From the sequence record NZ_CP070571.1: a stretch of 64,000 nucleotides of DNA. One strand, given 5' to 3'. Below the pieces are notes generated by a model. It saw only the letters and a program-made list of their open reading frames with translations, was not told the DNA's origin and ran no database searches. A program made the translations under genes and the position numbers. Positions 22,396-55,907 of the stretch are shown piece by piece. Position 1 is the first letter of the stretch. Each line of letters opens with the position of its first letter. The DNA comes from a plasmid.

Positions 22396-23028
22396 TTAGA
22401 CGGCAAACTCGAGCCAATACTTGTGCAGGCCAACAATATTAGACGAGCACAGCATGGGCATTGCCGCTTTGATCTTCTCCAGTGACCAATTCCACCACTC
22501 CATCTCCAGAAGCAATGAAATTTCCTCATCGGTGAAGCGTTTCTTAATCTTCTTAGCGGGATTGCCGCCAACGATAGCGTAAGGCTCCACATCTTTTGTC
22601 ACCAACGAGCGGCTGCCTATCACCGCACCGTGCCCGATCTTGATTCCGGGCATGACCATTGCCTCAGAGCCGATCCAAACGTCATTGCCAATGACAGTAT
22701 TACCTGCTTTTTGGAAGGCATCGAGTGCGCTTGAGAATGCAGGTTCTTCCTGCATATAAAAGAACGGGAAAGATGATGCCCAGTCGTACCGATGCCCCTG
22801 ATTGCCAGCCATGATAAAGGAAGCCCCACTCCCGATAGAGCAGAAACTACCGATGATCAACTTATCAACGTCATCACGGTCCGGAAACAGATACCGTGCG
22901 CAGTCATCGAATGAGTGCCCATGATAGTAGCCAGAGTAATAGCTGTACCGCCCAACTTTGATATTGGGGTTCTTCACTTGCTCAGAAAGCAGCTTGCCTT
23001 TGAAGGGGCTATCAAAGTAGTTGGTCAT
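22396..23028 (-). CDS. catB3: xenobiotic (chloramphenicol) acetyltransferase CatB3 (210 aa)
   Basis: [90 protein letters not shown]... is a hexapeptide-repeat CatB protein. Confidence 0.95.
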
Positions 23029-30847: not shown

Positions 30848-31092
30848 GATGGTCATGCTTGCATGACCATCTGAGCAACCAAAAACTACAGATAAACTAC
30901 AGATAAACTACAAAAAACGTTTTGCCTTAGTGTTGTAAGACTACAAATAGACTACAATAAAACTACAAATAAACTACAAAAAAACGTGACAGACTACAAA
31001 TAGACTACAATAAAACTACAGATAAACTACAAAACTCGATTGACCCCTTCTTACGAGTGTTGTAGAGTCATTTTCATACAACGGAGGGGGTT
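30848..31092 (+). promoter_or_regulatory. orphan oriT-like / StbA-binding region: 24-bp perfect palindrome plus about ten 11-bp direct repeats CTACA(A/G)ATA(A/G)A
   Basis: Palindrome GATGGTCATGCTTGCATGACCATC (30848-30871). Repeats ctacagataaa ctacagataaa ctacaaaaaac ... ctacaaatagactacaataaaactacaaataaa ... (30885-31047) lie immediately upstream of the stbA-like gene. The same architecture recurs at 55144-55303 beside the relaxase operon. Confidence 0.6.
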
Positions 31093-31479
31093 ATGAATAA
31101 ACCAGCAGATCTGAAACCCCGCAACTTATCGGCTGCTGTCAGATTGCGCCTAAATGAAATCGAGAACTGGCTGGACAGAGGGCTAACGCGGCATGAAATT
31201 GCTGAAATCCTCGACAGCGAATACAGCTTTTCGGTAACAGCCAAAGGGCTTGAGATGGCACTGTATAGAACGCGGCAAAACCGAAAAAATGTATTGCACA
31301 ATACGCATGATAAGAGTAGCGCGAAGGGTGCAGCGGAAAGTGTATTGCACAATACACAACCGTCTGAGCCTGAAGTGCAGGAAAGTAAAAAAGCAGAGAG
31401 TCCCGGCATTATTGATAAAGAATTCTTCAAGAAAATCGGTGAGAATTTCGACCCTAAGAAGTTCAACAAAAAATTCTGA
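31093..31479 (+). CDS. StbA-like DNA-binding protein, copy 1 (128 aa); about 60% identical to the copy at 54650-55084
   Basis: MNKPADLKPRNLSAAVRLRLNEIENWLDRGLTRHEIAEILDSEYSFSVTAKGLEMALYRTRQ aligns with MKKATELEPRNLSAAVRTRLDEIEGWLDKGVSRQEIAQLLDAEYSFSVTPKALEMALYRARL. Contains two GTATTGCACAATAC palindromes in its 3' half. Confidence 0.6.
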   Translation: MNKPADLKPRNLSAAVRLRLNEIENWLDRGLTRHEIAEILDSEYSFSVTAKGLEMALYRTRQNRKNVLHNTHDKSSAKGAAESVLHNTQPSEPEVQESKKAESPGIIDKEFFKKIGENFDPKKFNKKF

Positions 31480-32619: not shown

Positions 32620-33111
32620 GTCTGTGTTGTAAAATGGCGCCGAAAGCCCGGCGTAGCCGGTTGCCGGGCTATAAATTCTGCCACCCTACCCCCTGCCCTG
32701 ATTAGCCTTAACTCGCGAACAGCAATGAAGAAGTCAAAGTAATCCCTTTTAACCCCGGTGAGCGGGCTTTACGGCGTTTACGACGTAAAGGGCGTGATTT
32801 CCGGGGCCTAAGCGGCGGCAGCTTGCTGCTGACGCTTAGGGGGATGTTCATCAACTATTTCAGCGACACCAGGGAACTTAACACGGTAGCTGCAAAGCCC
32901 TAATCCCGCTCACCGCCACGCAGCTGCCGTACGTCCCCCACGGGGGTGCGCAGTGCTGCGCGCGGGAACGGCGGCCCGTCTGCGGGACGCGGCGCCGTAC
33001 TGCGCGTTAGCGGCCGCACGCGGCCGGTTACGGGGGACACTCCGCCATACGACCAGCGACCCGCTGAGCTGCACAATCCACAGATAACACAAGCTACATA
33101 CATGTCGATAT

Positions 33112-33940
33112 GGGAATCGGCCCACCTTGCCGGGCGCCGGTGCCGTGTGGAAATCCGCCCACCTTGCCGCGCGCCGGTGCCGTGTGGGAATCCGCCCACC
33201 TTGCCGCGCGCCGGTGCCGTGTGGGAATCCGCCCACCTTGCCGGGCGCCGGTGCTGTGTGGAAATCCGCCCACCTTGCCGCGCGCCGGTGCCGTGTGGGA
33301 ATCCGCCCACCTTGCCGCGCGCCGGTGCCGTGTGGGAATCCGCCCACCTTGCCGGGCGCCGGTGCTGTGTGGAAATCCGCCCACCTTACCGGGCGCCGGT
33401 GCCGTGTGGGAATCCGCCCACCTTACCGGGCGCCGGTGCCGTGTGGGAATCCGCCCACCTTACCGGGCGCCGGTGCTGTGTGGAAATCCGCCCACCTTGC
33501 CGCGCGCCGGTGCCGTGTGGGAATCCGCCCACCTTGCCGCGCGCCGGTGCCGTGTGGGAATCCGCCCACCTTGCCGGGCGCCGGTGCTGTGTGGAAATCC
33601 GCCCACCTTGCCGCGCGCCGGTGCCGTGTGGGAATCCGCCCACCTTGCCGCGCGCCGGTGCCGTGTGGGAATCCGCCCACCTTGCCGGGCGCCGGTGCTG
33701 TGTGGAAATCCGCCCACCTTACCGGGCGCCGGTGCTGTGTGGAAATCCGCCCATCTTGCCGGGCGCCGGTGCCGTGTGGGAATCCGCCCACCTTGCCGGG
33801 CGCCGGTGCTGTGTGGAAATCCGCCCACCTTACCGGGCGCCGGTGCTGTGTGGAAATCCGCCCATCTTGCCGGGCGCCGGTGCCGTGTGGGAATCCGCCC
33901 ACCTTACCGGGCGCCGGTGCTGTGTGGAAATCCGCCCATC
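33112..33940. repeat. tandem array of ~22 x 37-bp repeats (consensus TGGGAATCCGCCCACCTTGCCGCGCGCCGGTGCCGTG), head-to-tail with no spacers; iteron-like
   Basis: Read directly in the sequence. Unit variants (GGG/GGA, GCG/GGG, CCG/CTG, TTG/TTA/CTTG) recur with a 3-unit (111-bp) super-period. Lies about 50 bp upstream (on the coding strand) of the C-terminal fragment of a Rep_3-type repA. Confidence 0.85.
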
Positions 33941-33989
33941 TTCATGACAAAAATTTGTCAAATGACAGGCTCATGTGTGCTGATTTATG

Positions 33990-41404: not shown

Positions 41405-41815
41405 CTGTGGGAAACAGGTCAACTTTAATGGACGCTCCGGACTATGGGAAACAGGTCAACTTCGCGGACGGCCCGGACTATGGGAAACAGGTCAACTTCA
41501 CGGGCGGCCGGGAGTGTGGGGAACAGGTCAACTTCGCGGACGGCCCGGATTATGGGAAACAGGTCAACTTCGCGGGCGGCCGGGACTGTGGGAAACAGGT
41601 CAACTTTGCAGACGGCCCGGACTGTGGGAAACAGGTCAACTTCGCGGGCGGCCGGGAGTGTGGGGAACAGGTCAACTTCGCGGACGGCCCGGACTAAGGG
41701 AAACAGGTCAGCTTCTCGGACGGCCCGGACTATGGGAAACAGGTCAACTTCTCGGACGGTCGGGAGTGTGGGAAACAGGTCAAGTTAGGCAAGCACTATG
41801 GGAAACACAGCAAGT
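41405..41815. repeat. RepFIB-type iteron array, about 11 x 36-37 bp (TATGGGAAACAGGTCAACTTCGCGGACGGCCCGGAC)
   Basis: Directly repeated units with the conserved core TGGGAAACAGGTCAAC on the 3' side of repA. Confidence 0.85.
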
Positions 41816-52342: not shown

Positions 52343-52531
52343 ATGAACGATTATCTATCCCTCATGGAACAGGCACGACAGGCAGAGGATTTGCGCGACT
52401 GGAAAACCGCCGCGCAGCTCTACACTCAGGCAATGGCCGTTAGTCCAAAAGCCAGAACGATGCGCCAGCGCCGCGAAAGGCTGAACCTACAGCAGCGTAT
52501 CGACTTTTGCGAGCGTAACGCGAGAACGTAA
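52343..52531 (+). CDS. hypothetical protein (62 aa from MNDYLSL)
   Basis: Short ORF directly followed by a strong terminator. Confidence 0.4.
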   Translation: MNDYLSLMEQARQAEDLRDWKTAAQLYTQAMAVSPKARTMRQRRERLNLQQRIDFCERNART

Positions 52532-52537
52532 AAACTA

Positions 52538-52569
52538 AAAAAAACCGCCTCATACGGCGGTTTTTTTTC
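52538..52569. terminator. bidirectional rho-independent terminator
   Basis: AAAAAAAACCGCCTCATACGGCGGTTTTTTTT is a GC stem flanked by an A-run and a T-run, between convergent genes. Confidence 0.8.
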
Positions 52570-52572
52570 TGG

Positions 52573-53376
52573 TTAGGTTGGCTGGTATTCTGCCTTTCCG
52601 CAGTGTTCGCCACCACAGTACAGGATCAGGCCCGGCTTTCCCCACACGTTCGTATGGCATTTCGGGCAGGTGTATTTTGTCCGGTTTGATTTATTCACCG
52701 GCGTATCTGGCGGCGGGTTTACCAGCGAAAGGGCTTGTGTGATCTCATCGTCCAGCTCGCCATCGTCGCCGTATCCCTCGTCCTCATAATCTTCGTCATC
52801 AACATACCCTTTACCGTCTGCGCCGGTTGGCGTTGGTGGCGTTGGTTTGTGTGGCGGGAACCGATCCAGCCAGCTTAGTTTAAACTCCGTGGTAAGCAGC
52901 TCCTTGCAGGCGGTATCAAACGCGCCGCCGTCCTCGATGTAATGACTCATGGACTCACCGACGCGCTTACCTCCTGGCTGGCCGGTGTCGGATGGTATCA
53001 GGCCGATGCGCTCCATCAACGCCGCCCATTCTTTATTGTGGTATCCACGGCGGCCCGGTTTGCCGGTGTGTTGCTGCAACTGGTGAACCATTTCATGCAC
53101 AAGTGTGGAAAGCGTGTCGCGTATCGTGCGGATCGAGAAATAGACCGGATTCATGGCGATTTCATCAACGATTTGTCCGGTTGAGCGACCAACAAAGCGA
53201 CCATTCGAGAAATAGCCATACGTTCTTTTTTCGCGCTGAAGGGTGATAAGGCAAGGCGGCAGCGCACTTTCAAACAGGCGTTGATTGAAAAATTCGTAGG
53301 CGCGTTGAAGCTCGTCGTAAGTTTCCTGGGTAGGGATGATCATAGCGGCCTCACAATGGGTTTCTGGATTGCACAA
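52573..53376 (-). CDS. SprT-like zinc metalloprotease domain protein with acidic linker and C-terminal Cys4 zinc ribbon (267 aa); resembles IncN mpr
   Basis: HEMVHQ (HExxH) within a SprT/DUF45-like core (YHNKEWAALMERIGL), an acidic tract DDEDYEDEGYGDDGELDDE, and CPKCH...CGGEHC. Confidence 0.65.
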   Translation of the reverse strand: MCNPETHCEAAMIIPTQETYDELQRAYEFFNQRLFESALPPCLITLQREKRTYGYFSNGRFVGRSTGQIVDEIAMNPVYFSIRTIRDTLSTLVHEMVHQLQQHTGKPGRRGYHNKEWAALMERIGLIPSDTGQPGGKRVGESMSHYIEDGGAFDTACKELLTTEFKLSWLDRFPPHKPTPPTPTGADGKGYVDDEDYEDEGYGDDGELDDEITQALSLVNPPPDTPVNKSNRTKYTCPKCHTNVWGKPGLILYCGGEHCGKAEYQPT

Positions 53377-53407
53377 ACCATTTTATTGATTATGGATTGT
53401 GCAATCC
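53366..53407. promoter_or_regulatory. two copies of a 14-bp palindrome (GGATTGCACAAACC, GGATTGTGCAATCC) at the mpr-like start / promoter: putative operator
   Basis: The first copy overlaps the start codon and RBS of the minus-strand gene; the second lies 18 bp upstream. The identical motif occurs three times inside the stbA-like CDS at 54789-54883. Confidence 0.55.
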
Positions 53408-53512
53408 ACTTTTATTTTTGGGCGTTCCCTGCGGGCGGGCTTTCGTGCTGCGCATCGAGCCAGGCAAGCTGTCTCGCCCCTTCGGGCTTCAATCCCTAAC
53501 GCAATCGAGGCC

Positions 53513-53545
53513 AAAAAAAACGGCCCGGATAGGGCCGCTTCAGGT
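53513..53545 (-). terminator. rho-independent terminator after the stbC-like gene
   Basis: Minus strand reads CTGAAGCGGCCCTATCCGGGCCGTTTTTTTT. Confidence 0.7.
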
Positions 53546-53556
53546 CAGGCTTTTTG

Positions 53557-53925
53557 TCAGTGAAGCAGGAACGTTATAGCCGCCGCGCCGAGCGCTCCAC
53601 CAACGAAGGAACAGACAACCGTGATAATCAGAATCTGCCTGATAAGCGCTTGCGAAAACCCTGTTTGCGCTCCGGCCAGACGTTCAAAAAATTGGTCGCT
53701 AACCTTCTGCTCCTTCTTCAGAGTGTTGACCAGCTCGCGCTGGCTTGCGATCACTTCTGTTTTCGCCACCTCAGATGATTTCTTTATTTCATCGGAGGCT
53801 TTATCCAGCCGTTCTACTGTTTCGGTAACGCTTGTGGTTACGCTTTCCAGTTTTGAGGTGATTTCTTTCGCATCGCCTAAAAACCAGTCCATCAGGATAT
53901 CTAATTTATCAGGTTGCTTTTCCAT
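53557..53925 (-). CDS. StbC-like protein with C-terminal TM helix (122 aa)
   Basis: Third gene of the stbABC-like operon. Coiled-coil N-terminal part and hydrophobic C-terminus (ILIITVVCSFVGGALGAAAITFLL). Confidence 0.55.
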   Translation of the reverse strand: MEKQPDKLDILMDWFLGDAKEITSKLESVTTSVTETVERLDKASDEIKKSSEVAKTEVIASQRELVNTLKKEQKVSDQFFERLAGAQTGFSQALIRQILIITVVCSFVGGALGAAAITFLLH

Positions 53926-53926
53926 A

Positions 53927-54637
53927 TTATTCAGCCGTTAATATTTCAAAGGTACGATCAAGATTACGTTTAACCGGCAGCGCTAATTTCATCCAGCGAT
54001 AACGCCGCGCAGCCGCCGCGCGTTCGTCGGCATCAGTGCAGGATTTAGCTTTCGCTTTAAATGTTTCTGGATCTTCAGCCAGCAGTTCTTCAAACGAAAT
54101 TTTGTGATACGCGAGGTATTCATAAATTTCACTTTCAAAAACGGCGGCATCTTTATGAATAGAGGCTTTTTTAGAATCCTTCGCCCATTCATACACTGAA
54201 GCAATATCTTCCTGCGGAGTTGCTTTAATGCGGTTAGGCAGAAGAACAATTTTGGATTTTGGAACGCCAGCAGCGCTTAACGCGAGAGCGGTCTTAATAC
54301 TTTCCTGCCATGCTTTATCATCCGGGGTAACAGGAATAAGATATTTATCAAATTCATCAATTGCACCCTCGTATTTTGTCATGGTAGAAAGAAAACGCTC
54401 TACGTTCGACGCGCCAATATCCACGATGGCGTTATCTTCAAATACGATTTCTTCAACCAGTTGACCAAAATTATCCCCGGTCAAACTCATTACTTCATCA
54501 ACACCCAAATCAGCCGCCGACATATTGATTGTCTCGATGGCAAAGAATTTTGCGCCAGCCATGCGAGGATACAGCAGGTATGACGAAATAATAGTTTTGC
54601 CGACACTGCCACTGTAGTTCATTACTGCAATTTTCAT
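53927..54637 (-). CDS. StbB-like ParA-superfamily ATPase with deviant Walker A (236 aa)
   Basis: MKIAVMNYSGSVGKTIISSYLL is a Walker A-like P-loop. Located between the stbA-like and stbC-like genes next to oriT, as in IncW/IncN stb operons. Confidence 0.65.
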   Translation of the reverse strand: MKIAVMNYSGSVGKTIISSYLLYPRMAGAKFFAIETINMSAADLGVDEVMSLTGDNFGQLVEEIVFEDNAIVDIGASNVERFLSTMTKYEGAIDEFDKYLIPVTPDDKAWQESIKTALALSAAGVPKSKIVLLPNRIKATPQEDIASVYEWAKDSKKASIHKDAAVFESEIYEYLAYHKISFEELLAEDPETFKAKAKSCTDADERAAAARRYRWMKLALPVKRNLDRTFEILTAE

Positions 54638-54649
54638 CTATTCGCTCCT

Positions 54650-55084
54650 TTAGAAACCTTTTTTATTACCTACGCTACCTTTGAATGAGGACGCAACTTT
54701 TTTTGCCTCATCCCCGATTTTTTTAAAATCGGTATCGGACAGAAATTCTTTGTTCCCGCCCATATCCTCAACTAACTTTTCTGATTCTGGATTGTGCAAT
54801 CCAGTATCTTCCGGTTTTGCTTCTTCCTGCGGTTTTGGATTGTGCAATCCATTTTTTACCGTACTTTCTGGATTGTGCAATCCACCTTTTTTACGCTTTA
54901 ACCTGGCCCGGTACAATGCCATTTCCAGCGCTTTCGGTGTTACGGAAAAGCTATATTCAGCATCAAGCAGTTGAGCAATCTCTTGCCTCGATACACCTTT
55001 ATCCAGCCAGCCCTCGATCTCATCTAAACGAGTTCGTACTGCTGCCGAAAGGTTACGAGGTTCTAACTCGGTTGCCTTTTTCAT
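54650..55084 (-). CDS. StbA-like DNA-binding protein, copy 2 (144 aa)
   Basis: First gene downstream of the oriT direct repeats. N-terminal 62 aa conserved with copy 1 (31093). 3' half carries three GGATTGTGCAATCC palindromes encoding the repeated GLHNP peptide. Confidence 0.65.
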   Translation of the reverse strand: MKKATELEPRNLSAAVRTRLDEIEGWLDKGVSRQEIAQLLDAEYSFSVTPKALEMALYRARLKRKKGGLHNPESTVKNGLHNPKPQEEAKPEDTGLHNPESEKLVEDMGGNKEFLSDTDFKKIGDEAKKVASSFKGSVGNKKGF

Positions 55085-55559
55085 ACCCTCTCCTTCGTCT
55101 GCATTTGAATGTACGTTAACCCGTTTATCCCGTCAACCCGATTTTGTAGTTTTTTGGTAGTTTTTTAGTAGTTGGTTGCTTTTGTTTGTAGTCTATATGT
55201 AGTTATTCTGTAGTTTTTACCACAATTCAACTATCTAGGTGTGTAGTCTTTCTGTAGTCTATTTGTAGTGGCTGGTAAAAAAACTTTCATGCAAGCATGA
55301 AAGTGGTGAATGTGAACGCTTTTTGAGCGATTCACTTGCACGTAACACCGGTTTCTCCCTTAAAAAAGGCGTGGTATGGTATCCCTTAACGGCTATACAC
55401 CATACGCAATTACGATTTTCATCGTAAATGCTTGAAAACAAAACAAATTATTCTAATTTGTGTTTTAATGTGTAATACGCAACGTATTACACATGTGGAA
55501 TTAAGCCGCATATATGCTAGATTTGAATGTATTACATCGGTATTACACAAAGGAAACCT
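55085..55559. promoter_or_regulatory. oriT region with divergent promoters: 11-bp direct repeats (CTACA(A/G)A...), 20-bp palindrome CTTTCATGCAAGCATGAAAG (55284-55303), and 23-bp palindrome GTGTAATACGCAACGTATTACAC (55470-55492)
   Basis: Located between the divergent stb operon and the traK-like/T4CP/relaxase operon, as oriT is in IncW/IncN plasmids. The direct repeats 55144-55270 mirror those at 30885-31047. Confidence 0.65.
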
Positions 55560-55907
55560 ATGCCATCTATCAGTTTAAGAGTGACCGAAGCGCAAAAAAT
55601 CGACCTTGAATACCGTTCGGAGGGCAACGTATCGGAGTACATCAAGCAACAGCTTTTTGGACAAAAAGAGAGTGCCAGTGAAGTGATCGCCCGGCTTGAT
55701 AAACTGCTGGAACGTTCATCTTCAGAGCAGCAAGCCGCCGGACGAGATCGATACATCGAGGCAATGTTGATTGAGGTGTTATTGATACTTCGCCAGGTGA
55801 GTAAAGCAGATGCGCAGAAAGTTGCCGGTGGTGAAATTCGCCGGTTAGGGCTGGAGCCGTGGTCAGCAGAGCTGGCCCAGGAGAGAGAGGAACAGAGTCA
55901 TGAATGA
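55560..55907 (+). CDS. relaxosome accessory protein (TrwA/TraK-like, RHH), ~115 aa
   Basis: MPSISLRVTEAQKIDLEYRSEGNVSEYIKQQLF is an N-terminal ribbon-helix-helix. First gene of the Dtr operon; overlaps the T4CP start. The track start at 55527 is probably too early (RBS AGGAAA precedes 55560). Confidence 0.7.
   Translation: MPSISLRVTEAQKIDLEYRSEGNVSEYIKQQLFGQKESASEVIARLDKLLERSSSEQQAAGRDRYIEAMLIEVLLILRQVSKADAQKVAGGEIRRLGLEPWSAELAQEREEQSHE

Follow-up and report, generated by a model that had tools for sequence, protein, structure and literature searches.

A 16-bp palindrome shared by stbA coding sequence and the promoter of a SprT-like metalloprotease gene on IncN-type plasmids, a putative operator

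Introduction

Auxiliary intragenic operators are known for classical repressors, with lac O2 inside lacZ and gal OI inside galE as examples. On mobile elements, ImmA/ImmR-type pairs consist of a zinc metalloprotease and a separate HTH repressor encoded by an adjoining gene. Proteins of the SprT/Spartan/Wss1 family bind DNA and are activated by it. To our knowledge, Spartan binds DNA irrespective of sequence and does not act as a transcription factor, and we know of no SprT-like protease that reads a specific sequence in double-stranded DNA.

The stbDR sites of plasmid R388 are 9-bp direct repeats with 2-bp spacers; they are located upstream of stbA and are read by the N-terminal domain of StbA (PMC3098194). 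R388 StbA needs its C-terminal domain to be fully active in segregation (bioRxiv 10.1101/2022.04.29.490116). StbA and ArdK both repress the R388 ardC promoter, and ardC encodes a zincin-like metallopeptidase (PMC3937220). In RK2 (IncP-1), the KorB (OB) and KorA (OA) operators are short perfect palindromes at several backbone places, some of them off promoters (bioRxiv 10.1101/2022.04.29.490116), and they are read by one autoregulating backbone protein.

The window analyzed here is the whole 64,000-nucleotide stretch of plasmid DNA from record NZ_CP070571.1. It carries a 16-bp palindrome, which we named the Mpr box, both inside stbA and at the promoter of the metalloprotease gene mpr. The region resembles the R388 StbA system in its oriT-stbABC arrangement and leading-region neighborhood (PMC3098194; bioRxiv 10.1101/2022.04.29.490116); in R388, a plasmid regulator ties the stb operon to leading-region genes, including ardC. 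Unlike stbDR, the box is an inverted repeat located inside stbA and at mpr, and it is independent of StbA type. The likeness to RK2 lies in a short perfect palindrome at several backbone places, which by analogy might also be read by one autoregulating protein; unlike RK2, box-bearing plasmids have no ParB/KorB or matching KorA homologue accompanying the box, the sites number only 1 to 5, and the gene concerned encodes a protease. As with lac O2 and gal OI, copies of a promoter operator lie within neighboring coding sequence, which must keep the site, and the role expected by analogy would be looping and a raised local repressor concentration. Unlike lac and gal, 1 to 4 copies lie in an upstream gene that belongs to another operon, at a distance of 1.4 kb (9 kb in R46), the boxes occupy two reading frames depending on lineage, and the proposed binder is a protease and not an HTH repressor. 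Mpr has the HExxH...H zinc site and the fold of SprT/Spartan/Wss1 proteins (PDB 6mdx, 6mdw), along with an extra zinc-binding module, but a sequence-specific, self-repressing Mpr would be new compared with Spartan. As in ImmA/ImmR, a mobile-element zinc metalloprotease gene stands behind what appears to be an operator-controlled promoter; unlike ImmA/ImmR, no HTH repressor gene lies between the box and mpr at IncN-type loci or at most other mpr loci.

Results

Exact search confirmed the motif copies noted in the original prediction. GGATTGTGCAATCC occurs exactly at 53394, 54789, 54837, and 54870, with a copy carrying one mismatch at 53366, and GTATTGCACAATAC occurs exactly at 31291 and 31342 (Table 1). 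Less than one match is expected by chance, and the observed count was reached in 0 of 100 shuffles. The repeated motif is therefore real, but the palindrome is not 14 bp long as first described; its true length is 16 bp (T-GGATTGYRCAATCC-A), and its general form is TG(G/T)ATTG-NN-CAAT(C/A)CA. The central dinucleotide is unconstrained (CA, TG, CG, and TA are all seen). The distal promoter site and the three sites in the stbA at 54650-55084 have an identical 14-bp core. Boxes within stbA are spaced 33 and 48 bp apart in the window, 45-51 bp apart in IncN1/N2, and 21-27 bp apart in the Pseudomonas plasmid L009, and no phasing rule is visible among these spacings. An RNA hairpin or terminator was considered and rejected: the stem (6-7 bp) and loop (2-4 nt) are weak, the would-be loop G and C are conserved, and copies of the motif lie in either orientation and also in promoter DNA that is not transcribed.

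Table 1. Features of the window that bear on the Mpr box.
Feature	Coordinates	Strand	Description
mpr	52573..53343	-	256 aa, SprT/Spartan-like zinc metalloprotease; proposed box reader
Mpr box, promoter-proximal	53365..53380	.	TGGTTTGTGCAATCCA on mpr strand; one arm mismatch
Candidate -10 of mpr promoter	53380..53385	-	TAAAAT; predicted from layout in other lineages
Mpr box, promoter-distal	53393..53408	.	TGGATTGTGCAATCCA
stbC	53557..53925	-	Last gene of stb operon; upstream of mpr promoter
stbB	53927..54637	-	ParA-like ATPase; between stbA boxes and mpr promoter boxes
stbA, IncN3-type backbone	54650..55084	-	144 aa; N-terminal DNA-binding domain
Mpr box in stbA, third in gene direction	54788..54803	.	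Encodes T-G-L-H-N-P-E
Mpr box in stbA, second in gene direction	54836..54851	.	Encodes N-G-L-H-N-P-K
Mpr box in stbA, first in gene direction	54869..54884	.	Encodes G-G-L-H-N-P-E
Direct repeats	55143..55272	-	11 bp, (A/G)ACTACA on stbA strand; between oriT and stbA
Second stbA	31093..31479	+	128 aa, mosaic
GT-type Mpr box, IncN1-type stbA fragment	31290..31305	.	TGTATTGCACAATACG; encodes N-V-L-H-N-T
GT-type Mpr box, IncN1-type stbA fragment	31341..31356	.	TGTATTGCACAATACA; encodes S-V-L-H-N-T

Selection on the box acts at the DNA level, as originally proposed. The three sites in the stbA at 54650-55084 all encode G-L-H-N-P, and the two in the second stbA both encode V-L-H-N-T. In the Pseudomonas plasmids L008 and L009, the box is in stbA in a shifted reading frame and encodes V-D-C-A-I-Q, and in L006 the palindrome is perfect and the peptide is LYN. 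Wherever L-H-N is encoded, its codons are TTG-CAC-AAT with no synonymous variation, and the codon before it invariably has T in third position, whichever amino acid it specifies. No relative was found to keep the LHN peptide without the palindrome, while the DCAIQ and LYN relatives keep the palindrome under other peptides. The boxes in stbA are cis sites placed within a gene body, and their symmetry looks like that of an operator for a dimeric DNA-binding protein.

The box is strongly positional in whole-plasmid scans and does not behave as a common repeat. On whole IncN1, IncN2, and IncN3 plasmids it is confined to stbA and the mpr promoter, plus, in IncN1/N2, a place just beyond the orf following stbC. 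An IncN3 plasmid (34.6 kb) has only five sites, three in stbA and two at the mpr promoter. IncN2 has five perfect sites (three in stbA, one after the orf following stbC, and one at the mpr -10), and R46 shows the same pattern even though its mpr is 9 kb from stb. The stbA genes of IncN1, IncN2, IncN3, and related Pseudomonas plasmids carry 1 to 4 boxes, and IncN1, IncN2, and L008-type Pseudomonas plasmids have one extra box between convergent gene ends. The suspected link between stbA and the mpr promoter is real and not previously described.

The box travels with mpr and not with StbA. Of 80 Mpr homologues in alpha-, beta-, and gammaproteobacterial genomes, approximately 62 have a box 25-100 bp upstream, and most of the remaining homologues are in operons with the box further upstream. 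It is also present on backbones without stb, including L010 (PromA-like), L012 (IncFII/MPF_T), and IncX3; a small orf lies between the box and mpr in L010 and IncX3, and it is possible that a regulator is encoded there. The IncX3 box is a symmetric ATCG/CGAT variant that reads CTGT-N10-ACAG. A LexA box was considered for this variant and rejected, because compared with what we take to be the LexA consensus its spacing is N10 and not N8, and the flanking C/G is missing in most boxes. In the reverse direction, an Mpr start lies within 212 bp in 32 of 54 metagenomic loci that were selected by paired boxes alone. Approximately 16 of the 54 have no Mpr within the available DNA, so either the box serves other genes too or another factor exists. 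Naive ORF calling in these GC-rich, Mpr-less loci gave a DNA methyltransferase-like orf in L101 and L133 and otherwise no interpretable genes. R388 (NC_028464), which has stbABC and lacks mpr, has no box. IncN3, L010, L011, and L012 have VirB4, VirB11, a lytic transglycosylase, and Mpr in common, and Mpr is the only shared candidate for the binder.

A centromere-like role had also been suggested for the palindrome, and it finds no support. The box is tied primarily to mpr and not to the stb operon, is present on stb-less mpr plasmids, and is missing from R388, which has the ParA-like StbB without mpr; it does not behave as a ParB/parS-type centromere, and the annotation of the IncN3, IncN1, and IncN2 plasmids shows no ParB homologue.

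Mpr belongs to the SprT/Spartan metalloproteases. It matches Pfam PF10263 (SprT-like; E = 3e-10), and its top Foldseek match is human Spartan (6mdx; E = 3.6e-4). The zinc-site residues are H83-E-x-x-H87 and H102; H83, E84, H87, and H102 are invariant, and the profile match aligns H102 with the third zinc ligand of Spartan. Mpr also has an acidic linker and a C-terminal zinc ribbon, and no HTH or RHH domain is recognizable in it. Literature searches found no published function or regulator of Mpr and no description of the box, and nothing relevant on IncN stbA repeats or the motif string.

As expected of an operator, the box overlaps the core promoter of mpr or its operon. In the window, the mpr ATG (53343, - strand) is preceded at distances of 21 and 49 bp by the boxes at 53366 and 53394, which are 28 bp apart, center to center. 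The proximal box adjoins the candidate -10 and spans the expected transcription start, and the distal box overlaps the expected -35 region; a consensus scan of the window called no promoter at mpr, with a good -35 missing. A -10-like hexamer directly adjoins the box in 23 of 45 lineages. In many lineages it ends 0-3 bp before the proximal box, with TATAAT-T-box in L042 and L050.

Box type varies together with one residue of Mpr. By lineage, box symmetry is GG..CC in 21, GT..AC in 24, and hybrid in 5, and the GG and GT types are interspersed on the Mpr tree. Arg99 is found in 19 of the 21 GG-type lineages and 3 of the 24 GT-type lineages, which typically have Gly, Ala, or Pro. Residue 99 differs in 91% of cross-type pairs and 24% of same-type pairs (lineage pairs that are not phylogenetically independent), and it is the best column by far among alignment columns with <20% gaps. 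In a separate metagenome set, all 22 Mpr proteins adjoining GG-type pairs have Arg99. Site variants thus co-vary with the sequence of the putative regulator. The exception is the IncN1 lineage, which combines Arg99 with GT-type boxes, so the rule fails for the GG/GT pair present in the window. Residue 99 is three residues from the third zinc ligand, an odd location for a base-contacting residue. The two-arm change from GG..CC to GT..AC that was first read as compensatory covariation is real, but hybrid sites with one arm of each type (e.g., in L009) weaken that reading and indicate that a change in both arms is not strictly required. Template-switch mutation, too, can make perfect palindromes symmetric.

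Discussion

We consider it probable (roughly 0.6) that the Mpr box is the operator of mpr, that Mpr itself is the autorepressor, and that the copies in stbA are auxiliary intragenic operators. A symmetric (dimeric) protein bound at the -10/start box, with or without the -35 box, would repress mpr, and from the comparisons above we infer that the binder is most likely Mpr acting on its own gene. The additional boxes appear to have been written into the part of stbA that encodes its variable, tolerant C-terminal region, approximately 1.4 kb from the mpr promoter; the three in the stbA at 54650-55084 place primary operator sequence within a nearby gene. The additional boxes would most likely serve as auxiliary operators through DNA looping and by concentrating the binder locally at the mpr promoter, and they may be roadblocks too, coupling stb operon read-through to the level of Mpr. 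Looping and roadblock functions for these copies are purely conjectural, and the 9 kb between the stbA sites and the mpr promoter in R46 counts against both.

Another factor, either a conserved host protein or a mobile-element regulator, might read the box, in which case the mpr promoter would merely be its commonest target and Mpr would not bind specifically. We regard this as unlikely. In its favor, the box varies unusually little, although the Mpr proteins that accompany it have dropped to 40-50% identity and the hosts span alpha-, beta-, and gammaproteobacteria, as a conserved host factor would predict. A DNA-reading domain of a classical kind is lacking in Mpr, and both the Mpr-less paired-box loci and the IncN1 exception to the Arg99 rule fit such a factor. 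However, IncX3 shares hosts with IncN and yet has a symmetrically altered box together with a more diverged Mpr. GG and GT types both occur in Enterobacteriaceae and in Pseudomonas, and type follows residue 99, not host. The box matches no host-regulator consensus known to us, and no further plasmid regulator is common to the box-bearing backbones.

Under the preferred reading, in which Mpr reads the box, a bolder extension is that Mpr is a sequence-specific, DNA-tethered dimer that uses a surface near its catalytic zinc (residue 99), represses itself, and is parked by the stbA boxes within a few hundred bp of stbS and the oriT nick site, where it would cleave a DNA-bound partition or transfer protein, such as StbA or the covalently attached relaxase. 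We consider this extension doubtful; if true, Mpr would be the first known site-directed DNA-protein-complex protease of a mobile element.

Recombination could also have shaped the stbA copies. The first box marks where the N-terminal HTH domain gives way to the variable C-terminal region, which carries all three boxes of the 144-aa StbA. The second stbA is a mosaic of an IncN3-like N-terminal domain, with ACTACA repeats, and an IncN1-type C-terminal half; direct repeats are also found upstream of it (30940-31033), its 3' stbB is interrupted by IS903B, and the cognate IncN1 mpr is not present within the window. The boxes might be mainly substrates for exchange of the stbS and StbA N-domain cassette, with regulatory use incidental, and short identical repeats would also change repeat copy number. 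Identity among IncN plasmids falls to unrelated levels over the direct repeats and the StbA N-domain and climbs back to 80-100% precisely where the first to third box lie, and the IncN1-type copy in the window differs from L005 by a box-to-box deletion. On the other hand, 16 bp of homology is short for RecA-mediated exchange, and the dyad symmetry, the -10-adjoining position on many backbones, and the occurrence on stb-less plasmids are left unexplained. As the main account of the boxes, recombination seems improbable, although it is compatible with an operator read by Mpr and the two are not mutually exclusive.

Binding of the palindrome by StbA or by a backbone ArdK/KorA-type repressor, which the original prediction put forward for testing, is very improbable. 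Both StbA and ArdK repress a zincin-like metallopeptidase gene, ardC, in R388 (PMC3937220), and the box core TTGCACAAT is similar to R388 stbDR TTGCATCAT (PMC3098194). However, stbDR-type sites are short direct repeats upstream of stbA, and the repeats at 55143-55272 and 30940-31033 fit this description; those at 55143-55272 are likely the real StbA binding sites, analogous to stbS. The N-terminal HTH domain of StbA and the 11-bp direct repeats vary in concert, and the domain is swapped without regard to palindrome type: N-domain types A, B, and C pair with ACTACA, TACATCA, and GACA, respectively, whatever the box type. In L001, L003, and L004 the N-domain and direct repeats change together and the palindrome stays constant, and the palindrome changes independently when the window copy at 31093 is compared with R46. 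The box is not present wherever StbA is, since R388 has StbA and ArdK and no box, and L010, L011, and L012 have the box without stbA. A KorA/TrfB operator would be expected at the regulator's own promoter and several leading-region promoters, and scans of the IncN3 plasmid and R46 showed no box at ArdK/ssb or other leading-region promoters; a TrfB-like gene is also absent from L010 and L012. Resolvase, H-NS-like, and TraK-like proteins were rejected as binders as well, because their own promoters have no box and their genes are missing from other box-bearing backbones.

We give almost no credence to the repeats mattering as peptide, with (G/V)LHN(P/T) a short linear motif in a disordered StbA C-terminal domain and the DNA symmetry and promoter copies secondary: the repeat number of 2-3 is conserved across IncN1, IncN2, and IncN3 StbA, and the segregation requirement for the R388 StbA C-terminus (bioRxiv 10.1101/2022.04.29.490116) would fit, but the shifted frame, the LYN site, the invariant codons and flanking wobble T, and the same 16-mer in non-coding promoter DNA of stbA-less plasmids largely refute it.

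The gene mpr is carried by IncN, IncX, IncU-type, and many other conjugative plasmids and by ICE-like elements as a "putative zinc metalloproteinase." The 16-bp box is a simple marker by which mpr loci can be recognized in plasmid and ICE-like sequences of Proteobacteria, and the deeply conserved operator candidate and single co-varying residue make reading of the box by Mpr cheaply testable. The stbA copies represent a cis element written into coding sequence in two frames, and through them Mpr is linked to stbABC, the partition/transfer switch of IncN resistance plasmids, which are of clinical importance. If Mpr reads the box, a Spartan-family protease would be a sequence-specific DNA binder and autorepressor, which would be a new activity for the family.

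Mpr Boxes in the Window and on Related Plasmids

The palindrome in stbA and at mpr is 16 bp long in comparison with relatives, TG(G/T)ATTG-NN-CAAT(C/A)CA with a free central dinucleotide, and we refer to it as the Mpr box. Its form TGGATTGTGCAATCCA stands beside GT-type (GT..AC arms) and hybrid forms; GG-type boxes have GG..CC arms. Fewer than one match to the motif is expected in the window by chance. The original prediction was correct in reporting the palindrome as repeated in stbA and the mpr promoter, with exact matches at all the reported positions except 53366, where one base differs.

Features of the window, and of compared plasmids where these are named
Feature	Position	Strand	Remark
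stbA	54650-55084	minus	144-aa StbA; three boxes, each encoding GLHNP
stbB	53927-54637		after stbA
stbC	53557-53925		after stbB
mpr (SprT-like gene)	52573-53343		after stbC; ATG at 53343
Second stbA	31093-31479		two boxes, each encoding VLHNT
Box, exact GGATTGTGCAATCC	53394, 54789, 54837, 54870
Box, one mismatch to GGATTGTGCAATCC	53366
Box, exact GTATTGCACAATAC	31291, 31342
Candidate -10 of mpr (TAAAAT)	53385-53380	minus	directly adjoins proximal box
GC hairpin, GGCCC-TATCC-GGGCC then T8	53506-53540	minus	3' of stbC
Non-coding block GGCTCGATGCGCAGCACGA(A/C)AGCCCGC	53421-53462	minus	just upstream of distal box
Repeat array/N-domain cassettes	55143-55272; 30888-31047
Box-to-box deletion in stbA	31290-31356; L005 2734-2845
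Tandem array	33111-33942		37 bp x 22.5 copies, 93% match
Tandem array	41408-41783		36 bp x 10.4 copies
Convergent-gene box	R46 (L002) 22548-22561; L005 4608-4621; L147 9283-9298; L008 10770-10785
Boxes inside virB11 (T4SS gene)	L012 8523, 10218
Small orf between box and mpr	L010 19708-19917; L011 26239-26418		69 aa; 59 aa; not mutually similar

Positions 52500-55600 of the window match the backbone of 34-35 kb plasmids typed IncN with the gene order stbABC-mpr, here labeled IncN3-type (whole-plasmid example L001). The copy at 31093 is an IncN1-type oriT-stbA fragment, interrupted within stbB by IS903B. Two tandem arrays, which give long spurious ORFs in every frame, may be iteron-like and belong to two replicons of a fused plasmid. 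The GC hairpin following stbC resembles a terminator for the stb operon, in which case mpr would require its own promoter; a terminator scan of the window did not call this hairpin. The non-coding block upstream of the distal box is kept in the IncN3 backbone and in Pseudomonas plasmid L008 despite diverged flanks.

On L001, a complete IncN3 plasmid, the sites number five: stbA holds three, and the other two precede mpr by 36 and 64 bp. The mpr gene of R46 (IncN1) is located behind mucAB at a distance of 9 kb from stb and has a single exact site 32 bp upstream; R46 stbA has two exact sites and one degenerate site, and a site with one mismatch is located 2 bp past the orf that follows stbC. IncN1-like plasmid L005 and IncN2 plasmid pYNKP001-NDM have perfect sites at these three locations. 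Box type at stbA matches box type at mpr within each plasmid (GG..CC in IncN3, GT..AC in IncN1 and IncN2).

IncN1, IncN2, and L008 have one more site where convergent genes end, consistent with a small cluster of binding sites near stb and mpr. It lies a few bp to approximately 25 bp from a stop codon, past the orf following stbC in IncN1/N2 and past mpr in L008, and may be left over from the rearrangement that separated mpr from stbC, or serve as a boundary or a roadblock. Box number in stbA varies (one, two, or three) through deletions spanning exactly one box to the next, which suggests unequal recombination or slippage between repeats.

Conservation of DNA Rather Than Peptide

Pseudomonas plasmids L008 and L009 share the stbABC-mpr synteny, with one or four boxes in stbA and two to four upstream of mpr. 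Their stbA boxes are in the other reading frame and encode V-D-C-A-I-Q. Compared locus L006 has the perfectly palindromic site GTATTGTACAATAC, which reads LYN. L-H-N is encoded by TTG-CAC-AAT in every IncN StbA variant, with the sole exception of one AAC in the third box of L004, and the codon preceding the box ends in T throughout, whichever amino acid it encodes (G, N, T, S, Y, P, or D). The DNA is conserved at the stbA boxes, not the peptide. Neither of the two outcomes that the original prediction named as refuting it was seen: the relatives carry the palindrome with other peptides instead of LHNP without the palindrome, and the motif is not a common repeat lacking positional bias, its sites being few and located at stbA, mpr, and the orf after stbC. 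The proposed DNA-level cis site linking stbA and mpr is borne out.

Association of the Box with mpr Across Backbones

Boxes also precede mpr on plasmids with unrelated backbones that have no stbA. PromA-like MOBP plasmid L010 has one site in 35 kb, just past a TTGCAA-16-TATCAT promoter; the 22-kb IncFII/MPF_T plasmid L012 has AATTGTATTGTGCAATACAATT 36 bp upstream of mpr; and IncX3 plasmid L011 has the symmetric variant TGTATCGTACGATACA. A small orf separates box and mpr in L010 and L011, and IncN-type loci have none there.

An Mpr profile scan using one genome per species yielded 80 alpha-, beta-, and gammaproteobacterial loci, and a box was found 25-100 bp upstream of the Mpr start in about 62 of them. 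Most of the non-conforming loci have Mpr in an operon with the box farther upstream, or symmetric variants such as TGTTTTGTGCAAAACA. In the reverse test, 54 metagenome loci were picked solely for two GG-type boxes 5-35 bp apart; an Mpr start lies within 212 bp in 32 of these, six are stbA-like genes adjoining stbB, and about 16 were assigned to neither. A good -10 hexamer ending 0-3 bp ahead of the proximal box is seen in many lineages, together with a second box over the -35 region, an arrangement typical of repression.

Boxes at genes other than mpr were seen in L096, L104, and L134. Boxes inside virB11 of L012 and upstream of a DNA methyltransferase-like orf in loci L101 and L133 raise the possibility that the Mpr box may define a small regulon beyond mpr.

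Candidate Readers of the Box

Proteins common to IncN3, L010, L011, and L012 are VirB4, VirB11, a lytic transglycosylase, and Mpr, and Mpr is the only plausible reader among them. Pfam identifies only an SprT-like domain in Mpr. An AlphaFold model (mean pLDDT 87) has a protease domain (1-165), a disordered acidic linker, and a C-terminal zinc ribbon, and the top structural and profile matches are to the human Spartan protease domain (6mdx and 6mdw). Spartan/SprT proteins bind DNA and depend on it for activity. Sequence-specific reading of DNA is not known for this family.

Sites are symmetric in nearly all cases; by lineage they are GG..CC in 21, GT..AC in 24, and hybrid in five, and the GG and GT types are interspersed on the Mpr tree. 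Perfect palindromes can also change symmetrically through template-switch mutation. Among the alignment columns, the one for residue 99 of the window Mpr (motif G-x-P-G-R-[R99]-G-Y-H-N; column score 0.67, next best 0.39) is the clear outlier. This residue is three positions before H102, which is invariant along with H83, E84, and H87. Arg is found at this residue in 19 of 21 GG-type lineages versus 3 of 24 GT-type lineages. With overall identity equal, residue 99 differs in 91% of cross-type versus 24% of same-type pairs, these pairs not being phylogenetically independent. Arg99 is present in each of the 22 distinct Mpr proteins beside GG-type pairs in the independent metagenome set. The IncN1 lineage is an exception, having Arg99 with GT-type boxes.

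The original prediction named StbA and KorA/ArdK-type regulators as candidate binders. Neither is supported: R388, which has stbABC and ArdK without an Mpr-type gene, has no box anywhere. The TrfB/ArdK-like repressor is identical in L001 and compared plasmids L003 and L004, and no box occurs at its own promoter in these three.

StbA is very unlikely to be the palindrome reader because palindrome type goes with the backbone and not with the StbA N-domain; in the window copy at 31093, GT-type boxes accompany an N-domain of the ACTACA type. StbA is a mosaic with three unrelated-looking N-terminal domains, and each is paired with a particular set of 11-bp direct repeats that lie between oriT and stbA: ACTACA (window copies, L001, and L005), TACTAC (L003), GACA (L004), and TACATCA (R46 and IncN2), which is near the R388 stbDR TTGCATCAT (PMC3098194). 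This pairing, independent of palindrome type, makes the direct repeats the likely StbA sites, analogous to stbS. The repeat array and N-domain behave as an exchangeable specificity cassette among IncN plasmids (both window copies; upstream of stbA in L001-L005 and L147), of which there are at least four repeat/domain types, with a conserved hairpin TCATGCTTGCATGA as the left breakpoint and the Mpr boxes as the right. Cassette exchange looks like diversification of partition or incompatibility specificity.

Significance

In RA3, mpr is described as a putative zinc metallopeptidase of unassigned function (PMC7414963, PMC7783346). In R388, StbA and ArdK control leading-region promoters, and no such palindrome is described (PMC3937220). 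Full-text searches with longer motif strings gave no match, so we regard the box, and its association with Mpr, as undescribed within the literature searchable for this analysis.

On comparative sequence evidence, the Mpr box is most likely a conserved operator for a plasmid protease gene that is widespread, and its most likely reader is that protease. Boxes in stbA are present only where mpr is present, within the variable C-terminal coding region and in two reading frames. They would act as auxiliary operators through looping and local concentration of the binder, or alternatively as roadblocks within the stb operon. More speculatively, the boxes may hold a DNA-activated protease close to stbS and the nick site of oriT.
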